The notes: generated by a model from the letters alone, not told the origin. A stretch of 11,945 nucleotides of DNA from a virus (IMGVR_UViG_2681813261_000018); one strand, 5' to 3'. Positions 2 to 10,219 are shown, counted from the first letter of the stretch. A program made the numbers and translations.

Positions 2-832
2 AACAAGCGTTTTGACGGCGTGCTGGCAAGCGAACTGGCTGACCCGCAACTGTACAAAACCTTTACTGATGCCGCTGAAGTGATTGGCGAAGCATGGGAA
101 AGCCGCGAATTTGGTAAAGCTATCCGTGAAATCATGGCATTGGCTGACCTGGCTAACCGCTATGTCGATGAACAGGCTCCGTGGGTGGTGGCGAAGCAGG
201 AAGGACGCGATGCCGATCTGCAGGCGATTTGCTCTATGGGCATTAACCTGTTCCGCGTGCTGATGACGTACCTGAAGCCGGTACTGCCGAAACTGACTGA
301 ACGTGCAGAAGCATTCCTGAATACAGAACTGACCTGGGATGGTATCCAGCAACCGCTGCTGGGCCATAAAGTAAATCCGTTCAAGGCACTGTATAACCGC
401 ATCGATATGAAGCAGGTTGAAGCACTGGTGGAAGCATCCAAAGAAGAAGTGAAAGCCACAGCCGCACCGGTAACTGGCCCACTGGCTGACGACCCGATTC
501 AGGAAACTATCACCTTTGACGACTTCGCCAAAGTTGACCTGCGCGTGGCGCTGATTGAAAACGCAGAGTTTGTAGAAGGTTCTGACAAACTGCTTCGCCT
601 GACGCTGGATCTCGGTGGTGAAAAGCGTAATGTCTTCTCAGGCATCCGTTCCGCTTATCCAGATCCACAGGCACTGATTGGTCGTCACACCATTATGGTG
701 GCTAACCTGGCACCACGTAAAATGCGCTTCGGTATCTCTGAAGGCATGGTGATGGCTGCTGGCCCCGGCGGGAAAGATATCTTCCTGTTAAGCCCGGATG
801 CTGGTGCTAAACCTGGCCACCAGGTTAAGTAA
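2..832 (+). CDS. metG: methionyl-tRNA synthetase, C-terminal fragment (5' partial; reading frame enters the window at base 2, stop TAA 830-832)
   Basis: Translation ends ...[100 protein letters not shown], which I recognise as the enterobacterial MetG C-terminal tRNA-binding domain. Frame is open from the window edge. Confidence 0.9.
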
Positions 833-2073: not shown

Positions 2074-2099
2074 AACATTGATAATGGCGGTCACAATTT

Positions 2100-2119
2100 G
2101 ATTCTTTTCTATAAGAATC
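2100..2119 (+). terminator. AT-rich hairpin after the 244-aa gene (weak terminator candidate)
   Basis: GATTCTT / AAGAATC 7-bp arms with a 6-nt loop; no T-run follows. Confidence 0.3.
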
Positions 2120-2209
2120 CGTTGATCGCCACTACTCCCCTTCCATACCCGCAATCACATCCTTAAATATCAATAAGTTATAGTTGTTTATACAATCAAG
2201 AAAACAACT

Positions 2210-2940
2210 GAATAACAGATCAACGAAACATCAACGCTTTCACCCGATTTGGTCTAAAAAATTGACGTTTTCACACATCACTGCTTATACCCGTAATTCT
2301 ACGCAGCAGACAGCGCCACAGCGTCCAATTTTCACCACAGACGACCCAACACACTACCAACAAAAACACACGCTCAAAATCGCTCCCGTTGCGTTACACA
2401 ACCATATAAACAACTTATTTTCAGGCATAACAAAACAACTAAATAACACACATGCCATTCCCCAAAACAACCAACCTCTTTATGTCAGGCTACCGAAAAG
2501 ACCCACCTCTTCTCCCCAGGCTACCGGACAACCAACCTAACTTTCACAGGCAATCCGAAAACATTCATACGCGCGATACCCACGACACGCCATTACCCAA
2601 ACAGCGAAGAAACATCAGAATCACTGAAACCCCAACGAAGCCTGTAACCGCAAGGTTTCTCTCAATCCCTAAAGACACGAAACATAACAATCACGGGAAA
2701 CGCCATTACCCAATACACGAATAACTACAAAAGCCTTTCACACACTCCAGACAAACAACTCAAACACAATAACGAAAGGAATCGCCCACCTGCCATTACT
2801 CCATACACGGAGAAGAACAATCACCAAAACGACGAGAACACCCCATAGAAGAACCACCGCAAAACTAACGAAACCACATACACCGACAGGGAAAACAACA
2901 CACCCAATTCACCAACAGAAATAGTCGCCGTATAGAGCGT
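2210..2940 (+). other. A+C-rich, G-poor non-coding tract of about 730 bp with degenerate internal repeats
   Basis: Counting by eye in 60-nt blocks gives about 5-18 percent G and about 75-80 percent A+C on the plus strand. GCCATTACCCAA-type motifs recur near 2454, 2590, 2702 and 2791. The track ORFs here are proline/threonine-rich and lack ribosome-binding sites. Confidence 0.5.
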
Positions 2941-3134
2941 TCTGGAAGGAGTGAGCATTAACGCCTATAGAGAGGTTGAGACAGATAAAACACGAAGAAA
3001 ACACAACATGTATAGCGAACAAGACAGGTATGTATAAGTGGGGAGGGAATGAGGGGTGTCGCCTCCTTTTTCGTATTTATTCAACTCCTGATTTTATCCC
3101 CCGTAACACCCCTACGGTCAGCCTTCGGTCCATA

Positions 3135-3265
3135 CAGGGAAAAGGTTGCATCCCGCTACAGAAACGGCTGGGTTGCCTTCGGGGAACGGCTGGGGATTTT
3201 CAGGGAAACGGTCGAGTTGCCTGTGTGGATTTCGGGAAAAGGCTCGATGCCGGTTCAGAAACGGC
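3135..3265. repeat. iteron-like direct repeat cluster 1 (core GGGAAACGGC / CAGAAACGGC; full unit about 22 bp)
   Basis: Core copies start near 3135, 3158, 3181, 3201, 3233 and 3256, spaced 20-32 bp. Extended units CTGGGGATTTTCAGGGAAACGG (3190-3211) and GTGTGGATTTCGGGAAAAGGC (3222-3243). Confidence 0.55.
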
Positions 3266-3584
3266 GGCGTACCGGTATAGCGAGAGGGAGAGTTGCGGCT
3301 GTCCACCTGTAATGTGCGGGAAGAAGAGAGGCGCTCACGTGCAGGCGAACTTACTTACCGCTGGATTCCCTCTGAATGCCCAGCTACAGCGTAATTGTGC
3401 CAGACAGTCAGCGGGTCACAATCGATTTCAGTAGGTTTTCGGGGAGAGGATTATTCTGCCCACCAGCCACCTTCGGCCACTAAATCAGAATAATGTAAAA
3501 AGTGTACTCGGTACTGAACCTGAAAACTCACTGCCAAAACCACATTCACCGGAATAAAATCCTTTTTCGCCTGTGCGTTATTGC

Positions 3585-3616
3585 GATAATAACACCATCA
3601 AGAAAACATGTTGTTT
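3585..3616 (+). promoter_or_regulatory. shared promoter/leader element (GATAAT + AACACCATCAAGAAAACATGTTGTTT)
   Basis: Matches the elements at 947-981, 5725-5757 and 6209-6240. The ATG at 3608 sits inside the conserved palindrome and is therefore not taken as the gene start. Confidence 0.55.
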
Positions 3617-3628
3617 AAGGATTGCTTT

Positions 3629-3958
3629 ATGTTTGCAAATATCGACATCAACCAAATCAAGAAATTAACTCAAAAAGAGTTTGATCAGTTTTATGAGTTA
3701 GAAGGTTGGTCTTCCACTCTGATCAATTCGCGGTGGGTGCTTGAGCTGATGACTCGTGATGACGCACCTGCTTTGATGATTTGCGACATGGGTGAAGATG
3801 CTGACTTTATGGATATGAGCGAATTTTGTGTGGACACATACAACCGCAGCCAGAAGTACTACTTCACATGCGATAGCGAGAATGATGTTATTTCTAAGGT
3901 CTATCTTCACCTTGTCCAGCATTGGGACGTTCAGGAGTTTCTTGAAGTATTCGCGTAA
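3629..3958 (+). CDS. hypothetical protein (109 aa)
   Basis: ATG at 3629 with AAGGA 7 nt upstream. Product MFANIDINQIKKLTQKEFDQFYELEGW...; no family recognised. Confidence 0.6.
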   Translation: MFANIDINQIKKLTQKEFDQFYELEGWSSTLINSRWVLELMTRDDAPALMICDMGEDADFMDMSEFCVDTYNRSQKYYFTCDSENDVISKVYLHLVQHWDVQEFLEVFA

Positions 3959-3967
3959 TCCCAACCA

Positions 3968-3986
3968 AAGCCAGCAATGCTGGCTT
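3968..3986 (+). terminator. hairpin of the CCAGCAATGCTGG family (no T-run)
   Basis: AAGCCAGCAATGCTGGCTT lies 10 bp after the stop codon; its core is related to the hairpins at 5592-5615 and 6063-6086. Confidence 0.35.
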
Positions 3987-4084
3987 AACTTAATCTGTAG
4001 CCGCAGGGAAGAACCTGCATATCGCTCATGCACCTGATCAATATGCTTTGTAGCCGTTTTCTTACTGGTATTATTTACGCCATT

Positions 4085-4100
4085 GAGAAAACAAGTTGTT
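4085..4100 (+). promoter_or_regulatory. partial leader palindrome GAGAAAACAAGTTGTTT
   Basis: AACAA-G-TTGTT core upstream of the 4113 start; a TATTAT -10-like hexamer lies at 4069-4074. Confidence 0.4.
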
Positions 4101-4112
4101 TACGGAGTTGTG

Positions 4113-4424
4113 ATGAAAAAATCATTGGTTCTTGGTCTGGACAAAGACCAGAAGAGAAAAGAGAAGCCTGCGCTGGTTGCTCAATTAACTTTGCTGGACA
4201 TCGTTGCCAATGGAACCTCTATTCGTCTGTTCCGTGAAACGGCGGTGTCTTTCGATAAAAACACATTTACTCGTTATGTAATGAATGTTCGTCGCCAGCG
4301 TGGAAAAGGCTGGGTGGCATTTCAAAGAATGTGGCCGGAACATCAGCTCGAACTGGCTTTGATGGAAGTTAACCGCGTGGCCCAGCAAGAGATTCAGAGA
4401 GCATCAGTGATGGCAATAGCCTGA
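4113..4424 (+). CDS. hypothetical basic protein (103 aa)
   Basis: ATG at 4113 with GGAG 5 nt upstream; the track ORF starts at TTG 4083. Product MKKSLVLGLDKDQKRKEKPALVAQ... A strong terminator follows. Confidence 0.6.
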   Translation: MKKSLVLGLDKDQKRKEKPALVAQLTLLDIVANGTSIRLFRETAVSFDKNTFTRYVMNVRRQRGKGWVAFQRMWPEHQLELALMEVNRVAQQEIQRASVMAIA

Positions 4425-4458
4425 TAATGTGCAAGTGGTAATTAGTCGACCGTACGAC

Positions 4459-4488
4459 AGCCCCGCCATCCTTACGGGGCTTTTTTTT
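4459..4488 (+). terminator. rho-independent terminator
   Basis: AGCCCCG / CGGGGCT stem (4459-4465 and 4475-4481) with a 9-nt loop, followed by a run of eight T. Confidence 0.85.
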
Positions 4489-4491
4489 GTA

Positions 4492-4520
4492 TTGTAAGTA
4501 CATACTTACGATCATAGAAT
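4492..4520 (+). promoter_or_regulatory. sigma70-like promoter TTGTAA-17-TAGAAT with palindrome GTAAGTA-CA-TACTTAC in the spacer
   Basis: -35 at 4492-4497 and -10 at 4515-4520 with exactly 17 bp between them. The 7-bp-arm palindrome at 4494-4509 overlaps the -35 and spacer, the position expected for a repressor operator. Confidence 0.6.
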
Positions 4521-4552
4521 ATAAAAATAACCAAAACACTACGGAGAGTGAA

Positions 4553-4948
4553 ATGACCGTTAAACGCGAAAAACTGACAGTTGATGTTTACTATGCCTCT
4601 GAAACCGCCGAAGGTAAGAATGTGGCAAAAATCACCGTTGTTACGTACAACACCGAAACTGGTGCCGAAGTCCAGGCCAGTACGATCGTGCGTAAAGGTG
4701 ATGCCTCCGGCGGCGAGTACGCGACTCAATACCAGTCTATTTTCGATGCAACTGACCCGCTGCTGCTGAAAATCGAGAACTACTTCCGCCAGGTTGATGA
4801 AGAGGTGTTTGAAACCATGATGAATATGGTTGACACCGTATTCGCCTCCAGCCTGAATACCAACACTACCTGGATTGGTCAGTACGGTCTGCGCATTACC
4901 TCTGGCATTCCTGCCGACACCTTAATCCCTGAAAGCGTATTCGCTTAA
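4553..4948 (+). CDS. hypothetical protein (131 aa)
   Basis: ATG at 4553 with GGAGA 5 nt upstream; the track ORF starts at TTG 4487. Product MTVKREKLTVDVYYASETAEGKNVAKITVVTYNTETGAEVQ... Confidence 0.65.
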   Translation: MTVKREKLTVDVYYASETAEGKNVAKITVVTYNTETGAEVQASTIVRKGDASGGEYATQYQSIFDATDPLLLKIENYFRQVDEEVFETMMNMVDTVFASSLNTNTTWIGQYGLRITSGIPADTLIPESVFA

Positions 4949-4957
4949 TCCTCTTTA

Positions 4958-4985
4958 AATGGCGCGTAAACCGCGCCATTTTATT
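4958..4985 (+). terminator. rho-independent terminator
   Basis: AATGGCGCG / CGCGCCATT 9-bp stem with a 5-nt loop, followed by TTATT. Confidence 0.75.
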
Positions 4986-4994
4986 AAGCCCGAT

Positions 4995-5014
4995 AACAAT
5001 TTGTTTTCTGCCTT
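4995..5014 (+). promoter_or_regulatory. conserved 20-mer AACAATTTGTTTTCTGCCTT (copy 2 of 2)
   Basis: Identical to 918-937; preceded by CGAT, which gives a GATAAC -10-like hexamer. Confidence 0.5.
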
Positions 5015-5065
5015 ATCTGATTTGTGAAAATGATTTCACTGAAGCAACTTAATAAGGAAACCATC

Positions 5066-5440
5066 ATGGGACTTGATATCTATATCGAGACACAGCCTAA
5101 AAACGATCTGAATAACGAGGCATCCAGAAAGCGGGTTGCTTACTTCCGTAAGTTCAATGCGCTCGTTGGGTGGATGGAGCGCAACGTAGGTGAAGTCGAA
5201 AATTGTGAGCTTTTAGAATTAACGATGAATGACATTTGTTTTCTGAAGGCTCATTTGATGCACATAAACGAAAGCAATTGCGAAGAGTACTTGCCTACCC
5301 GGGAAGGTTTTTTCTTCGGCAGTCAGGAGTACGATGAAGGTTACTGGCATGATGTGGGGGAGTTGAAAGAGCTTGTGGAAGATCTGATTAAGAACCACGA
5401 CTTTCACAATAACAGACTGACCTTCTGCGCCTGGTGGTAA
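5066..5440 (+). CDS. hypothetical protein (124 aa)
   Basis: ATG at 5066 with AAGGAA 7 nt upstream; the track ORF starts at GTG 5024. Product MGLDIYIETQPKNDLNNEASRKRVAYF... Confidence 0.6.
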   Translation: MGLDIYIETQPKNDLNNEASRKRVAYFRKFNALVGWMERNVGEVENCELLELTMNDICFLKAHLMHINESNCEEYLPTREGFFFGSQEYDEGYWHDVGELKELVEDLIKNHDFHNNRLTFCAWW

Positions 5441-5442
5441 AT

Positions 5443-5586
5443 ATGGGCGATTTCAAGAAACGCCTGAAGGAGAGAGCCGAGATGGTCAGAAAGCGAAACG
5501 CCTCTTCTGTCATCAGATACGCAAGGCAGTTTAGTCGCAACAACAAATCAGTTGAGGAAAAGATCCTTAGCGTAATCGGGCGATAA
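5443..5586 (+). CDS. possible small basic protein (47 aa), translationally coupled to the upstream gene
   Basis: ATG lies 2 nt after the upstream TAA, with GGTGG 5 nt upstream. Product MGDFKKRLKERAEMVRKRNASSVIRYARQFSRNNKSVEEKILSVIGR. Not in the ORF track (short), and rich in rare Arg codons. Confidence 0.35.
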   Translation: MGDFKKRLKERAEMVRKRNASSVIRYARQFSRNNKSVEEKILSVIGR

Positions 5587-5591
5587 TTATT

Positions 5592-5615
5592 AAGACCACC
5601 AGCATTGGTGGTCTT
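5592..5615 (+). terminator. perfect 10-bp-stem hairpin AAGACCACCA-GCAT-TGGTGGTCTT
   Basis: Immediately after the 5586 stop. Inverted-orientation relative of the hairpin at 6063-6086; followed by the shared flank AAATGAC. Confidence 0.5.
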
Positions 5616-5724
5616 AAATGACTTTTAATAACCGAAGGTTAGTTTGAAACCTGGCTATCAACCTCCAGAACCTTTCTTGTGTATTCAGCCTGTATTAACT
5701 TCTTTTATGCCTTATCTACACTGC

Positions 5725-5757
5725 GATAATTACACCAACAAGAAAACAACATGTTTA
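5725..5757 (+). promoter_or_regulatory. shared promoter/leader element (GATAAT + TACACCAACAAGAAAACAACATGTTT)
   Basis: GATAAT at 5725-5730. Near-identical to 3585-3616 and 6209-6240. Confidence 0.55.
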
Positions 5758-5775
5758 CGCAGTGAGGATATGCTC

Positions 5776-6057
5776 ATGACTGATTTCACCATTACCCCTA
5801 AAGCACAAAATGTATTTCTTGAATCATGGCTGGACTTGCCGGAAACAGAACAGCAAGAAATGGATCATGTGGATTATGACGAGCAGGTAAGCACGCGATT
5901 CTTCCACTTTGAGGGCTGCGTTTACGACATTGCCGACTTCATGCGAGATGACCGCTTCCCTGAATGGCACGCAAGCTATCCACTAAACGCCTTTGCCATG
6001 CTGATGATCCGTGTGGATGATTCAGGGGATACCATCGACATCGGTCTGCTCCACTAA
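5776..6057 (+). CDS. hypothetical small acidic protein (93 aa)
   Basis: ATG at 5776 with GAGGA 7 nt upstream; the track ORF starts at TTG 5644. About 20 acidic versus 5 basic residues. Confidence 0.6.
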   Translation: MTDFTITPKAQNVFLESWLDLPETEQQEMDHVDYDEQVSTRFFHFEGCVYDIADFMRDDRFPEWHASYPLNAFAMLMIRVDDSGDTIDIGLLH

Positions 6058-6062
6058 AGATT

Positions 6063-6086
6063 AAGGCCACCAATGCTGGTGGCCTT
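6063..6086 (+). terminator. perfect 10-bp-stem hairpin AAGGCCACCA-ATGC-TGGTGGCCTT
   Basis: 5 bp after the stop codon; followed by AAATGAC as at 5616. Confidence 0.5.
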
Positions 6087-6120
6087 AAATGACCATCCTG
6101 TTTCCCGCAGGCTAAAAACA

Positions 6121-6190
6121 CCAACCTCTTACCTCCAGGCAACCGATAAACCCACCTGTTCCCGTCCGGCTACCGCAACTTTCCACTTTG
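6121..6190 (+). repeat. about 70-bp intergenic repeat, copy B (copy A at about 2471-2547)
   Basis: Shares CCAACCTCTT, CAGGC-ACCGA-AA, CCCACCT and GGCTACCG blocks, in the same order, with 2471-2547. Confidence 0.45.
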
Positions 6191-6240
6191 ACGCCTTATT
6201 CGTACAACGATAATTAACACCAACAAGAAAACAATTTGTT
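6188..6240 (+). promoter_or_regulatory. promoter TTGACG (-35) - 15 bp - GATAAT (-10) followed by the shared leader ACACCAACAAGAAAACAATTTGTT
   Basis: -35 at 6188-6193, -10 at 6209-6214; leader palindrome AACAA-T-TTGTT. Confidence 0.55.
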
Positions 6241-6261
6241 ATTTACGATAAGGAAATAATC

Positions 6262-6744
6262 ATGAATTTTATCGCTACTGTAAACGCACCCGCACATGGC
6301 AATATCGCTGTAACGTTCTCTGACATTGAAAAACGAGTACTTGGTGCATGGCGCGACAATGAGACGGTAGAACTGTCAGCACAAGAAAAATGCATTATTG
6401 CACGCGACATCATTGGCAATCGTCGTTACTCGCGGGTATTTGAGAAAGCGTATGTGGTAAATTCTGGATTCGGAACGTTCGTCTTTCCGGTGCGCTCCGG
6501 GCGATTCTGCCAGTCCAAGCTGATTGAGTTCGCTACGCAGATTTCTGTCTGGATTAAAACTCAATCGTCGTTCAAATTTTCCGACGATGAAGCAGTATCG
6601 CAGGGGATGCGGATCGCCAACAATGCGATTAAATGCAAAAACATTACGTATACCGCTGGCGTTGATACATGGAAACTGTTTTGCGCTAACTTTATGCTGA
6701 ATGTATACGCAAGCAACCGCATCCACATCCTTGATGGCGTGTAA
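6262..6744 (+). CDS. hypothetical protein (160 aa)
   Basis: ATG at 6262 with AAGGA 7 nt upstream. Product MNFIATVNAPAHGNIAVTFSDIEKRVLGAWRDNETVELS... Confidence 0.7.
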   Translation: MNFIATVNAPAHGNIAVTFSDIEKRVLGAWRDNETVELSAQEKCIIARDIIGNRRYSRVFEKAYVVNSGFGTFVFPVRSGRFCQSKLIEFATQISVWIKTQSSFKFSDDEAVSQGMRIANNAIKCKNITYTAGVDTWKLFCANFMLNVYASNRIHILDGV

Positions 6745-6746
6745 CT

Positions 6747-6776
6747 GAGAAGAGGGCCAGAAACGGCCCTTTCTCT
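6747..6776 (+). terminator. terminator-like hairpin
   Basis: AGGGCC / GGCCCT stem with a 6-nt loop, followed by TTTCTCT. Confidence 0.5.
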
Positions 6777-6793
6777 ATAGCCACCAGCTGCCG

Positions 6794-6870
6794 CAGGGAA
6801 ATTTTCAGAAACGGCAAGGAACGTATTCATGAGCCGACGGGAAACGGCCAGGATTTTTTCGGGAAACGGC
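6794..6870. repeat. iteron-like direct repeat cluster 2 (about 22-bp unit GGATTTTC-RGG-AAACGGC)
   Basis: CAGGGAAATTTTCAGAAACGGC (6794-6815) and CCAGGATTTTTTCGGGAAACGGC (6848-6870), plus ACGGGAAACGGCC (6837-6849); same unit as cluster 1. Confidence 0.55.
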
Positions 6871-6994
6871 TGCATTCGCCTTTATGTAGAAAAAACATCG
6901 GGAAGCTGGTGGAATCCAACCAGCGGTTGTCGGACAGGCGAGCGGGGAAAATTATGATGACTTTCGTCGCCTGAGACATCCAGATTTCTTTCGT

Positions 6995-8054: not shown

Positions 8055-8199
8055 NNNNNNNNNNNNNNNNNNNNNNNNNNNNNNNNNNNNNNNNNNNNNN
8101 NNNNNNNNNNNNNNNNNNNNNNNNNNNNNNNNNNNNNNNNNNNNNNNNNNNNNNNNNNNNNNNNNNNNNNNNNNNNNNNNNNNNNNNNNNNNNNNNNNN
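8055..8199. other. masked / undetermined sequence (145 N)
   Basis: Run of N; content cannot be assessed. Confidence 1.
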
Positions 8200-8231
8200 A
8201 TGTTCGTTATATGTTTGAGTTGCCAGATCTG

Positions 8232-8575
8232 NNNNNNNNNNNNNNNNNNNNNNNNNNNNNNNNNNNNNNNNNNNNNNNNNNNNNNNNNNNNNNNNNNNNN
8301 NNNNNNNNNNNNNNNNNNNNNNNNNNNNNNNNNNNNNNNNNNNNNNNNNNNNNNNNNNNNNNNNNNNNNNNNNNNNNNNNNNNNNNNNNNNNNNNNNNNN
8401 NNNNNNNNNNNNNNNNNNNNNNNNNNNNNNNNNNNNNNNNNNNNNNNNNNNNNNNNNNNNNNNNNNNNNNNNNNNNNNNNNNNNNNNNNNNNNNNNNNNN
8501 NNNNNNNNNNNNNNNNNNNNNNNNNNNNNNNNNNNNNNNNNNNNNNNNNNNNNNNNNNNNNNNNNNNNNNNNNNN
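8232..8575. other. masked / undetermined sequence (344 N)
   Basis: Run of N; content cannot be assessed. Confidence 1.
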
Positions 8576-8645: not shown

Positions 8646-9170
8646 TTAAAATGGAAGGATTCGTTCAACCCAATCGAAGAAAACAAGTATTTTTCTGCCG
8701 TCTTCTAACTTAAGAGTGACCTGGCAAGCATCAACGCCTCTTGACACCCCTTCTATTTCACGACCGTCTGTCATGTAGACCCTTATAGATTGGTCGTTTT
8801 GATAAGCCTTGCGACATATCGCAAAAAAGTCACGGCGTGATGGCTGATTGTCAACATAGTCTGGATGTATTGTTAGCCTACCTTTGAACTCGCGAGCAAT
8901 GCCATCGATTACACCTGATTCAATTGTGCTAATGCGCTCAAGTGGGAGTCTTATACGATTTTCTTTATCATATGGAATCGGGCATAAATCTAGCTTATTG
9001 CGTGAAGGCATTGTCCCCTGAACGTACATGCAAAACACCTGACCGTCTTCAAGCGTGACTCTTACAGGAATGTTGTTCTTCCGCCAGAACATAAGTATGT
9101 TCTCAGCATGTTCGTAGTCTCGCGGCCAGACTTCAGCCGGTATGCCGTAGGTGATGTCCAATGTTTTCAT
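8646..9170 (-). CDS. hypothetical protein (174 aa) with an internally repeated [VL]-x-[LM]-x-DG-[QR] motif
   Basis: ATG at 9170 overlaps the upstream stop codon (ATGA). Motifs VTLEDGQVF, VYMTDGREI and LKLEDGRKILVF suggest a repeated small beta-rich fold. Confidence 0.65.
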   Translation of the reverse strand: MKTLDITYGIPAEVWPRDYEHAENILMFWRKNNIPVRVTLEDGQVFCMYVQGTMPSRNKLDLCPIPYDKENRIRLPLERISTIESGVIDGIAREFKGRLTIHPDYVDNQPSRRDFFAICRKAYQNDQSIRVYMTDGREIEGVSRGVDACQVTLKLEDGRKILVFFDWVERILPF

Positions 9171-9885: not shown

Positions 9886-9940
9886 TCTGTCTATTAGCTC
9901 TTCAAGTCTGGCAATTCTGAAATTGACTAAGAATCCAATA

Positions 9941-10219
9941 TTACGGCAGTTTGCTTAGAATTTGCTCTAAATCTTCCTTTGTCATATTAGAGTTCTCATA
10001 GATGCGCATGATTTTCTCACGAGCCTTAGCAGAGACTCCAACGGCAGATGAAACTTTGTCAAATTCAGCCATTGTCATCGCTTCCAGAATGGTATTGATA
10101 ACTTCAGCCTTAGACATTTTGATGTTTTTTTCTTTTAGTTTCATTTGAAACTTTCCAAGTTTGTCATTGGCCTTATCGGACAATGCCACCTGACAATAAG
10201 TTGTTTTCTTTTCGCTCAT
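9941..10219 (-). CDS. hypothetical small protein (92 aa), translationally coupled to the helicase
   Basis: ATG lies 2 nt after the helicase TAG stop. Product MSEKKTTYCQVALSDKANDKLGKFQMKLKEKNIKMSKAEVINTILEA..., rich in K/E. Confidence 0.65.
   Translation of the reverse strand: MSEKKTTYCQVALSDKANDKLGKFQMKLKEKNIKMSKAEVINTILEAMTMAEFDKVSSAVGVSAKAREKIMRIYENSNMTKEDLEQILSKLP

Follow-up and report, generated by a model that had tools for sequence, protein, structure and literature searches.

Two co-oriented tandem-repeat arrays form a conserved cis-element in SSU5-type phage-plasmids

Plasmid iterons, such as those of RepFIB and of P1, where repeats flank a gene in the arrangement incC-repA-incA, are direct repeats of constant period and variable copy number that form two clusters, one of them at the promoter region. 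The nutR/tR1 region of lambda and the Rho-dependent terminators are co-oriented, C/A-rich and G-poor untranslated spacers that lie past an open reading frame (ORF) and a hairpin, with a CUCUU(A) core. Here we report on an 11,945-nt stretch of viral DNA (IMGVR_UViG_2681813261_000018; this whole stretch is called the window, and positions refer to it unless another sequence is named), which carries two arrays of tandem ~30-31-nt repeats, module 1 and module 2, that share these features with both classes. They differ from iterons in their longer, bipartite unit of 30-31 bp and in their strong strand bias, and neither a Rep-type initiator nor a DnaA box or an unwinding element is associated with them. 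In contrast to lambda nutR/tR1 and the Rho-dependent terminators, they miss the boxA consensus, appear to have no boxB/N pair, are more conserved than the usual rut site and are retained also in settings devoid of upstream co-directional transcription. The hairpin next to module 2 is on its 5' side, the boxB of lambda nut being 3' of boxA. The arrays are iteron- or operator-like in geometry and rut- or nut-like in composition, and show the defining properties of neither class.

The window belongs to a phage-plasmid of the SSU5/pHCM2/pLF82 (phage Cyrano) type. The ~6.5 kb around the arrays match ~150 E. coli plasmids (~105-120 kb) at 97-98% identity and 100% coverage, and also match pLF82, deposited as Escherichia phage Cyrano; sequence searches with this 6.5-kb region gave no chromosomal match. 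Rfam, at a permissive threshold, returned no match in the region, and our searches of the literature on SSU5, pHCM2 and Cyrano gave no description of these repeat arrays.

A first-pass annotation of the window had proposed a degenerate 70-bp module shared by 2471-2547 and 6121-6190. These two segments are indeed related: their Smith-Waterman score is 49, whereas dinucleotide shuffles give 15.6 +/- 2.7 and none of 2000 attains the observed value (z = 12.5). What has to be revised is the size of the unit, as each site is a tandem array of ~30-31-nt units, three copies per site (2470-2557 and 6092-6175). A repeat search returned one family with five ~30-nt copies, at 2464, 2495, 2525, 6114 and 6144, and a profile built from the units recovered three per site, the sixth copy (6088-6114) being weak (E = 0.085). 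Outside these six copies the profile matched neither the window nor the rest of the 108-kb Cyrano genome, and it gave no match to the minus strand; the weaker relatives proposed at 5650-5680 and 3455-3490 gave it no match either, and their alignment scores were reached by 58-675 of 1000 shuffles. Because the units are less than 70% alike, the arrays are not detected by Tandem Repeats Finder. In each unit, an 11-nt box A (ACC[C/A]ACCTCTT) is followed by five variable nucleotides and box B (CAGGCTACCG, 10 nt), and a short linker rich in A completes it; both modules carry the same box A and box B:

2470-2557, plus strand: module 1, three tandem units (2470-2500, 2501-2530 and 2531-2557) with a period of 31 and then 30 nt
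Module 1, plus strand: box A of units 1, 2 and 3, ACCAACCTCTT, ACCCACCTCTT and ACCAACCTAAC
Module 1, plus strand: box B, CAGGCTACCG twice, then CAGGCAATCCG
6092-6175, plus strand: module 2, three tandem units (6092-6119, 6120-6149 and 6150-6175)
6092-6119, plus strand: module 2, degenerate unit, ACCATCCTGTT-tcccg-CAGGCTAAAA
6120-6149, plus strand: module 2, unit ACCAACCTCTT-acctc-CAGGCAACCG
6150-6175, plus strand: module 2, unit ACCCACCTGTT-cccgt-CCGGCTACCG

In an information profile of 93 IMG/VR contigs together with the plasmid loci, two conserved boxes flank a variable pentamer. The spacer between box A and box B is 5 nt long in 183/184 units and the box B-box B period is 30-31 nt in 74/81 cases, with one to four recognisable units per array, mostly two or three. 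A mini-hairpin, CCUG(U/C)...GCAGG, is possible in unit 1 and rests on a single U.G to C-G change.

The arrays occupy two homologous positions only and always lie on the plus strand, 144/144 being found in one of the two contexts. Their hosts are elements of E. coli, Salmonella, Klebsiella, Enterobacter, Citrobacter, Cronobacter and Kluyvera, together with phage SSU5; module 2 is present in Y. pestis pMT1, in phage SSU5 and in one Kluyvera SSU5-like contig, and a scan of genome contigs with a loose pattern gave chance singletons and one Kluyvera SSU5-like contig. Among 5,426 complete E. coli genomes, 246 carry module 1 on plasmids and none carries a copy or its complement on the chromosome; at least 80% of the module is retained in 237 of these 246 plasmids. 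The mean pairwise identity of module 1 among nine plasmids is 0.855, 0.85 and 0.66 for units 1, 2 and 3, and 0.48-0.71 for the adjoining stretches. For module 2, in ten plasmids of seven genera including Y. pestis pMT1, the values are 0.93, 0.91 and 0.78, units 1 and 2 being conserved at the level of the neighbouring operator/leader (0.95); in the adjacent 160-aa gene of the same ten elements, third codon positions reach 0.63 and first and second positions 0.85-0.89. In view of this strong cross-genus conservation, the arrays are a selected cis-element under strong purifying selection, and neither decaying duplicates nor a duplication scar.

The surroundings of the two arrays contain the following features, and a second repeat family, the G-rich iterons, accompanies each of them:

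2140-2940, plus strand: C/A-rich part of a gene-free region, holding module 1 (A 39%, C 31%, G 12%, T 17%)
3131-3275, plus strand: G-rich iteron cluster 1, ~670 nt 3' of module 1 and made up of six copies of ~TTTTCAGGGAAACGGCTGGG
6061-6088, plus strand: hairpin with a Chi octamer at the end of a 93-aa gene, having no U-tract and directly preceding module 2 in most relatives
6187-6243, plus strand: promoter (TTTGAC, 16 nt, GATAAT) and leader/operator palindrome of the 160-aa gene, directly 3' of module 2, with identities of 0.82 and 0.95
6262-6744, plus strand: 160-aa gene (PHROG 1641; no Pfam family), between module 2 and G-rich iteron cluster 2
6790-6880, plus strand: G-rich iteron cluster 2, past the terminator of the 160-aa gene and ~700 nt 3' of module 2, with three to four copies

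Module 1 lies within 2074-3607, where the Prokaryotic Genome Annotation Pipeline annotates no gene. This 1.5-kb region can be aligned, at 65-78% identity, with plasmids of E. fergusonii, Citrobacter, Salmonella (pHCM2), Enterobacter, Cronobacter and Klebsiella, and it starts at the same base in all relatives compared. To its left, the genes differ wholly by host, with methionyl-tRNA synthetase (MetRS) here, type I restriction-modification in Klebsiella and others in Salmonella. We rejected the possibility that the CA-rich region codes for protein, as there is no conserved open frame and the frames shift in position and frame between relatives. On the plus strand, a C/G ratio of at least 2.5 in 78-nt windows is confined to 2107-2860 and 6085-6190; the 800-bp tract around module 1 and module 2 itself are the only two such strand-skewed places in the 108-kb genome. 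Module 1 has a ratio of 3.0-3.9 and module 2 one of 3.2-3.6 (C 36-40%, G 12-14%); at site 1 the bias is kept at variable alignment columns, which are 64% A+C and in which A<->C is the commonest class of substitution. Strand composition changes sign near 2950-3000, and the AT-rich stretch at 2150-2230 is specific to the window and not conserved in relatives. In RNA-seq of an LF82 lysogen, the value falls from 56.9 for CYRAN_102 to the floor, 5.0, for CYRAN_103, an ORF call that covers module 1 (PMC9928086 S1 Table); therefore, module 1 is not an abundant RNA in LF82 lysogens. No canonical terminator lies between CYRAN_102 and CYRAN_103.

Several other elements were seen in the gene-free region. 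It opens with a conserved block (2076-2132, plus strand; 88% identity), which forms the exact border with the variable cargo genes and contains a nested inverted repeat, TGGCGGTCA...TGATCGCCA; GTTGAC/GTCAAC heptamers occur four times in 190 bp. A conserved RNA structure in this left block was unsupported, the covariation term being close to zero. Boxes of the GCCATTAC type (CGCCATTACCCAATACACGGAGAAGAAC) recur at intervals of ~100 nt (2589-2617, 2702-2730 and 2792-2820, plus strand); there are three of them here and five in pHCM2-type relatives, identity across genera being 90% for the third. The CA-rich region also contains, at 2197-2216 and 2407-2445, operator-like copies that have no promoter. 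In a plasmid that circulates in E. coli, pECAZ155_2 (L231), the CA-rich region carries an IS3 insertion at about window position 2830, between module 1 and the G-rich iterons; its tolerance indicates that the spacing between the two is not essential for maintenance.

At site 2, the last unit of the array ends at 6175, the -35 element is at 6187-6192 and GATAAT is at 6209-6214. The 160-aa protein gave a confident structural model (predicted local distance difference test, 89) with no match to a known fold. Past its gene, the copies of G-rich iteron cluster 2 are at 6809, 6842 and 6864, and those of cluster 1 at 3140, 3162, 3184 and 3206 (an exact 22-nt period), then at 3237 and 3259. The G-rich iterons are conserved across genera and occupy only these two places in the 108-kb genome. 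The notion that they are inverted CA units was rejected, since neither profile matches the other family on either strand and the families are unrelated. For RNA of the CA modules pairing at long range with that of the G-rich iterons, duplex energies were not clearly better than in shuffles (23/300, 82/300 and 18/300; one cross-pair, 4/300). The RepA iterons of the plasmid (CTCTCTATAGTGGATA) differ in sequence, lie 30 kb away and are unrelated to both families.

The genes of the window are nearly all on the plus strand, in the order metG, two small genes, the gene-free 1.5-kb stretch and a row of small function-unassigned genes; those after 3607 each have their own GATAAT promoter and palindromic leader/operator. 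The window opens with a fragment of metG, which belongs to the MetRS gene of the plasmid itself; window 20-832 (plus strand) and L001 3960-5993 represent a full-length gene, adjoining an ApbC/Mrp-like ATPase and an S24 (LexA-like) peptidase, and this MetRS/ATPase/S24 peptidase cargo is not in the Salmonella and Klebsiella relatives. The repeated promoter unit occurs at 913-990, 3549-3624, 4046-4112, 4990-5031, 5689-5764 and 6186-6243, and consists of (TG)CGATAAT followed by the leader AACACCAACAAGAAAACAAnTTGTTT with the palindrome AAAACAAnTTGTTTT, two units having a second copy over the -35 element. Five Chi octamers are found in 3.5 kb, at 3460 (minus), 5595 (minus), 6074 (plus), 6780 (minus) and 6904 (plus); four of the five are in non-coding spacers, two of them within gene-end hairpin stems, and the one at 5595 starts in the last bases of a 47-aa ORF. 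Over the whole element, base composition predicts ~2.4 Chi sites, and 25 are present.

These contexts bear on how the arrays arose. The first-pass annotation had placed the modules just upstream of GATAAT/leader elements, in a recurrent scheme of hairpin, CA-rich spacer, promoter and gene, and had attributed the gene cassettes to duplication or modular recombination. The placement applies to module 2; module 1 is in the gene-free region, ~1 kb before the next promoter (3585-3590). The scheme does not hold, since a module accompanies one promoter unit only and the other four to five have none. As for duplication, the similarity ends at the array edges, the upstream and downstream flanks aligning at the level of shuffles, and no paralogy links the nine small proteins, the best BLASTP E value among them being 0.03; therefore, the modules give no evidence for cassette duplication. 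Neither tblastn nor blastn gave any signal of a decayed 160-aa gene or of its promoter at site 1. What stands of the recombination proposal is that the spacers act as module boundaries and that the two modules are paralogous.

Such a boundary is seen directly left of module 2, where a 90-aa minus-strand helix-turn-helix (HTH) gene is present in SSU5 and in two IMG/VR contigs (L040 and L050), always with the junction CCGCAGGCTAAAAAC and with both sequence types of module 2. In SSU5 (L228) the gene is SSU5_116 (9907-10179, minus strand), annotated as 'repressor-like' and with a weak PHROG match to an antitoxin HTH. The HTH proteins have diverged to 74-82% amino-acid identity and their start codons are 66-80 nt from the junction, and the array core is unchanged. 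In these three lineages the array is located between divergent promoters, has no co-directional gene upstream and stays attached to the downstream promoter. The motif (G/C)CCGCAGG(G/C), which forms the junction of the HTH-gene insertion, occurs on the plus strand at 4001, 6105 and 6791, 13-17 nt past gene-end hairpins (stems ending at 3986 and 6088, and the terminator at 6744); it is not enriched genome-wide (10 observed against 6.6 expected).

Based on these properties, the reading that we tentatively prefer, while giving it somewhat less than an even chance, is that each module is an array of co-oriented, helically phased duplex-DNA sites for one sequence-specific protein. The occurrence of the same boxes at both loci points to one trans-acting reader, and the period of 30-31 bp, about three helical turns, to a duplex-bound protein on one face per unit; that this reader would be sequence-specific and of fixed geometry is favoured by boxes that are near-invariant and shared by both loci, and by a spacer of fixed length and free sequence. 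The strongest argument for DNA, and not RNA, is that the array core is kept in the divergent-HTH lineages, which have no upstream co-directional gene. It is this observation, together with CYRAN_103 being at the RNA-seq floor, that leads us to rank a DNA-level binding-site array first. In line with it, the copy number of the units varies from 2 to 4, as in iteron arrays, and each array is paired with a repeat family of 22-bp period, both families being at two loci only. We infer from these observations that the ligand is a protein, that its target is duplex DNA and what its binding would bring about.

The reader would presumably be encoded by the phage-plasmid, and one bipartite site would comprise box A, any five bases and box B. 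With sites 30-31 bp apart, the bound proteins would all be on the same side of the helix, so that cooperative binding would be possible. The probable output would be local control of transcription, or insulation, at both loci: the module 2 array would act from directly upstream of the promoter of the conserved 160-aa gene, and the module 1 array from a non-coding control region that divides variable cargo from small promoter-driven genes. The arrays may also cooperate with the 22-bp G-rich iterons ~0.7 kb on, for example by pairing or looping of the two loci.

Several observations weigh against a duplex-DNA binding-site array. The neighbouring conserved genes are all function-unassigned, and the sole recognisable nucleic-acid binder nearby has an RNA/single-stranded DNA-binding (Sm) fold. 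The strict strand orientation and the C-rich, G-poor bias, which extends over 800 bp at site 1, are left unexplained by a duplex-DNA site. Unit 2 of module 2 is separated from GATAAT by 63 nt in the window and by 70 nt in elements of the pHCM2 type, and this 7-bp difference between lineages argues against classical face-dependent activation. No recognisable promoter lies next to module 1. Finally, origin features were not found at the arrays, and the RepA iterons are unrelated to them.

The composition would be better accounted for by a Rho-loading RNA insulator (rut-like, possibly nut/boxA-like), which we regard as unlikely, though more probable than the other alternatives. Rho, perhaps with a sequence-specific partner, would load on transcripts passing a U-less hairpin, so that read-through RNA, C-rich, unstructured and untranslated over ~90 nt, would be stopped before the next gene. 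Rho engages 57-85 nt, which is near the ~90 nt of an array, and a C-rich, G-poor stretch of at least ~60-80 nt, as is usual for rut sites, is present on the strand that would be transcribed. The C>G skew is confined to the two array-bearing places and maintained at variable columns, the arrays are always co-oriented with transcription, and both follow ORFs whose hairpins have no U-tract. The RNA-seq drop from CYRAN_102 to CYRAN_103 in the absence of a canonical terminator would also fit. The CUCUU(A) of box A resembles the boxA core GCUCUUUA and lambda boxA CGCUCUUA; in all units of all relatives, however, the conserved G of the boxA consensus, (C/T)GCTCTT(T)A, is replaced by C (ACCTCTT(A/C/T)). 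We know of no N-like protein here, although none was searched for. Moreover, Rho binding is too unspecific to explain near-invariant boxes with a fixed 5-nt spacer, YC dinucleotides are not enriched over shuffles, and another U-less hairpin, at 3968-3986, has no module after it. The array is also conserved where the upstream gene is divergent, so that no read-through can enter it.

A second RNA-level explanation, which we consider improbable, makes the units single-strand (RNA) operators of an FljA-like protein, each bipartite unit being read by one tandem-Sm protomer and three units by a trimeric, pseudo-hexameric ring that would control transcripts crossing the arrays. The gene in question is as follows:

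8646-9170, minus strand: FljA-like gene (PF03614, E = 9e-81), 2.5 kb from module 2

The predicted structural model of its product shows two fused Sm/Hfq-like domains (tandem-Sm), and the FljA family represses fliC post-transcriptionally (PMC2652032). The gene is in the same conserved block as module 2 in pLF82/Cyrano, Citrobacter, pMT1 and SSU5, that is, in all relatives whose sequence reaches it. The units are strand-specific and bipartite, and three of them make six boxes; however, the match of six boxes to six domains is pure numerology, and Sm domains bind ~1-3 nt each as against boxes of 10-11 nt. When the 5' untranslated region of E. coli fliC was compared with the units, the leaders and the GCCATTAC boxes, no similarity was significant; a 9-mer that it shares with the leaders and the GCCATTAC boxes, ACCCAATAC, is matched by 32-35% of shuffles. 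Array RNA is at the floor in lysogens, and the divergent-HTH lineages pose the same problem of transcription as they do for Rho. A sequence-specific Hfq-like switch, in which the trimeric ring on three units would control read-through or translation at two early-region checkpoints, is a candidate of still lower probability. Near the FljA-like gene, two runs of N, at 8055-8209 and 8232-8575, hide the spacer in front of that gene and part of a 219-aa gene (the CYRAN_113 homologue); in relatives, the sequence there is ordinary.

It is about equally improbable that the arrays, together with the 22-bp G-rich iterons, are replication or partition parts, such as a lytic origin, a copy-control region or a centromere-like locus. 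The presence of two repeat families at two loci, with four copies plus two of the G-rich iterons and an exact 22-bp period, would suit such a role, as would the repeats-gene-repeats layout around the 160-aa gene, which recalls that of P1. As in iterons, the period is constant and near integral helical turns; strand composition changes sign within the gene-free region; and the element encodes a T4-like replication and recombination set (UvsW, UvsY, a gp32-like protein, a helicase and a primase). Nevertheless, the DnaA box TTWTNCACA does not occur in 2074-3608 or 6050-6900, there is no conserved AT-rich unwinding element, no Rep-type initiator is associated with the arrays, and the RepA iterons are of different sequence and 30 kb off. 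The CA and G repeat families are unrelated to each other, and the IS3 insertion between module 1 and the iterons is tolerated. Least probable of all, to the point that we give it very little weight, is that the repeats are functionless relics of an old tandem duplication or of cassette-boundary recombination: the two arrays are paralogous and gene insertions recur at the exact left edge of module 2, but the arrays are more conserved, in seven genera, than the adjacent gene is at its first and second codon positions, the spacer is invariant in length and variable in sequence, and 237 of the 246 E. coli plasmids hold most of module 1, as noted above.

Other described systems resemble the arrays in part. 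Type III toxin-antitoxin loci (ToxI/ToxN, CptIN, TenpIN and phage pseudo-ToxI) likewise have two to four repeats of ~30-36 nt before an ORF of ~160-170 aa; here, in contrast, a promoter and not a terminator lies between repeats and ORF, and the G-poor repeats cannot form a ToxI-type pseudoknot. This identity was rejected, the 160-aa protein having no ToxN/AbiQ-like fold or Pfam match and a sigma-70-type promoter with an operator intervening. The consensus of the RfaH ops element is GGCGGTAGnnTG, and the reverse complement of box B and its flank, (T/C)(T/C)CGGTAGCCTG, equals ops positions 3-9, 11 and 12. Unlike ops, however, it is antisense to all the neighbouring genes, it lacks the two 5' G, one of which is the G at -10 of the pause, and ops is not known to occur as a triple tandem; with 9/11 specified bases on a minus strand without an operon and both 5' G missing, the identity was discarded. 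The sponge RNAs CrcZ and CsrB share a long, unstructured, C/A-rich non-coding stretch with several families of repeated boxes, whereas here RNA is at the floor in lysogens and there is no conserved promoter/terminator pair. A sponge of Hfq/CrcZ type was rejected, its motifs not being enriched (AANAANAA, 2 observed against 2.7 expected; (ARN)x3, 5 against 6.1). Resemblances to CRISPR repeats (I-E, I-F), sigma-28, sigma-54, the LexA box and P1 parS box B were judged by eye to be partial or at chance level.

In summary, the finding by itself is a well-supported cis-element, specific to one phage-plasmid family and of unusually regular architecture, whose repeats, geometry, exclusivity to two loci, orientation and strong purifying selection are observed directly. 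SSU5-type phage-plasmids are common, being represented in 246 of the 5,426 complete E. coli genomes and including pHCM2 of S. Typhi and the pMT1 backbone of Y. pestis; they carry resistance and virulence cargo. The arrays belong to a wider non-coding set (the gene-free region, the 22-bp iterons and the GCCATTAC boxes) that is among the most conserved sequence of the segment, outconserves the neighbouring protein-coding gene and is located exactly at the border between exchangeable cargo and small early genes. The reader of these arrays, once known, would mark a control point for lysogeny, induction or maintenance, and would explain the exchange of cargo at such borders.

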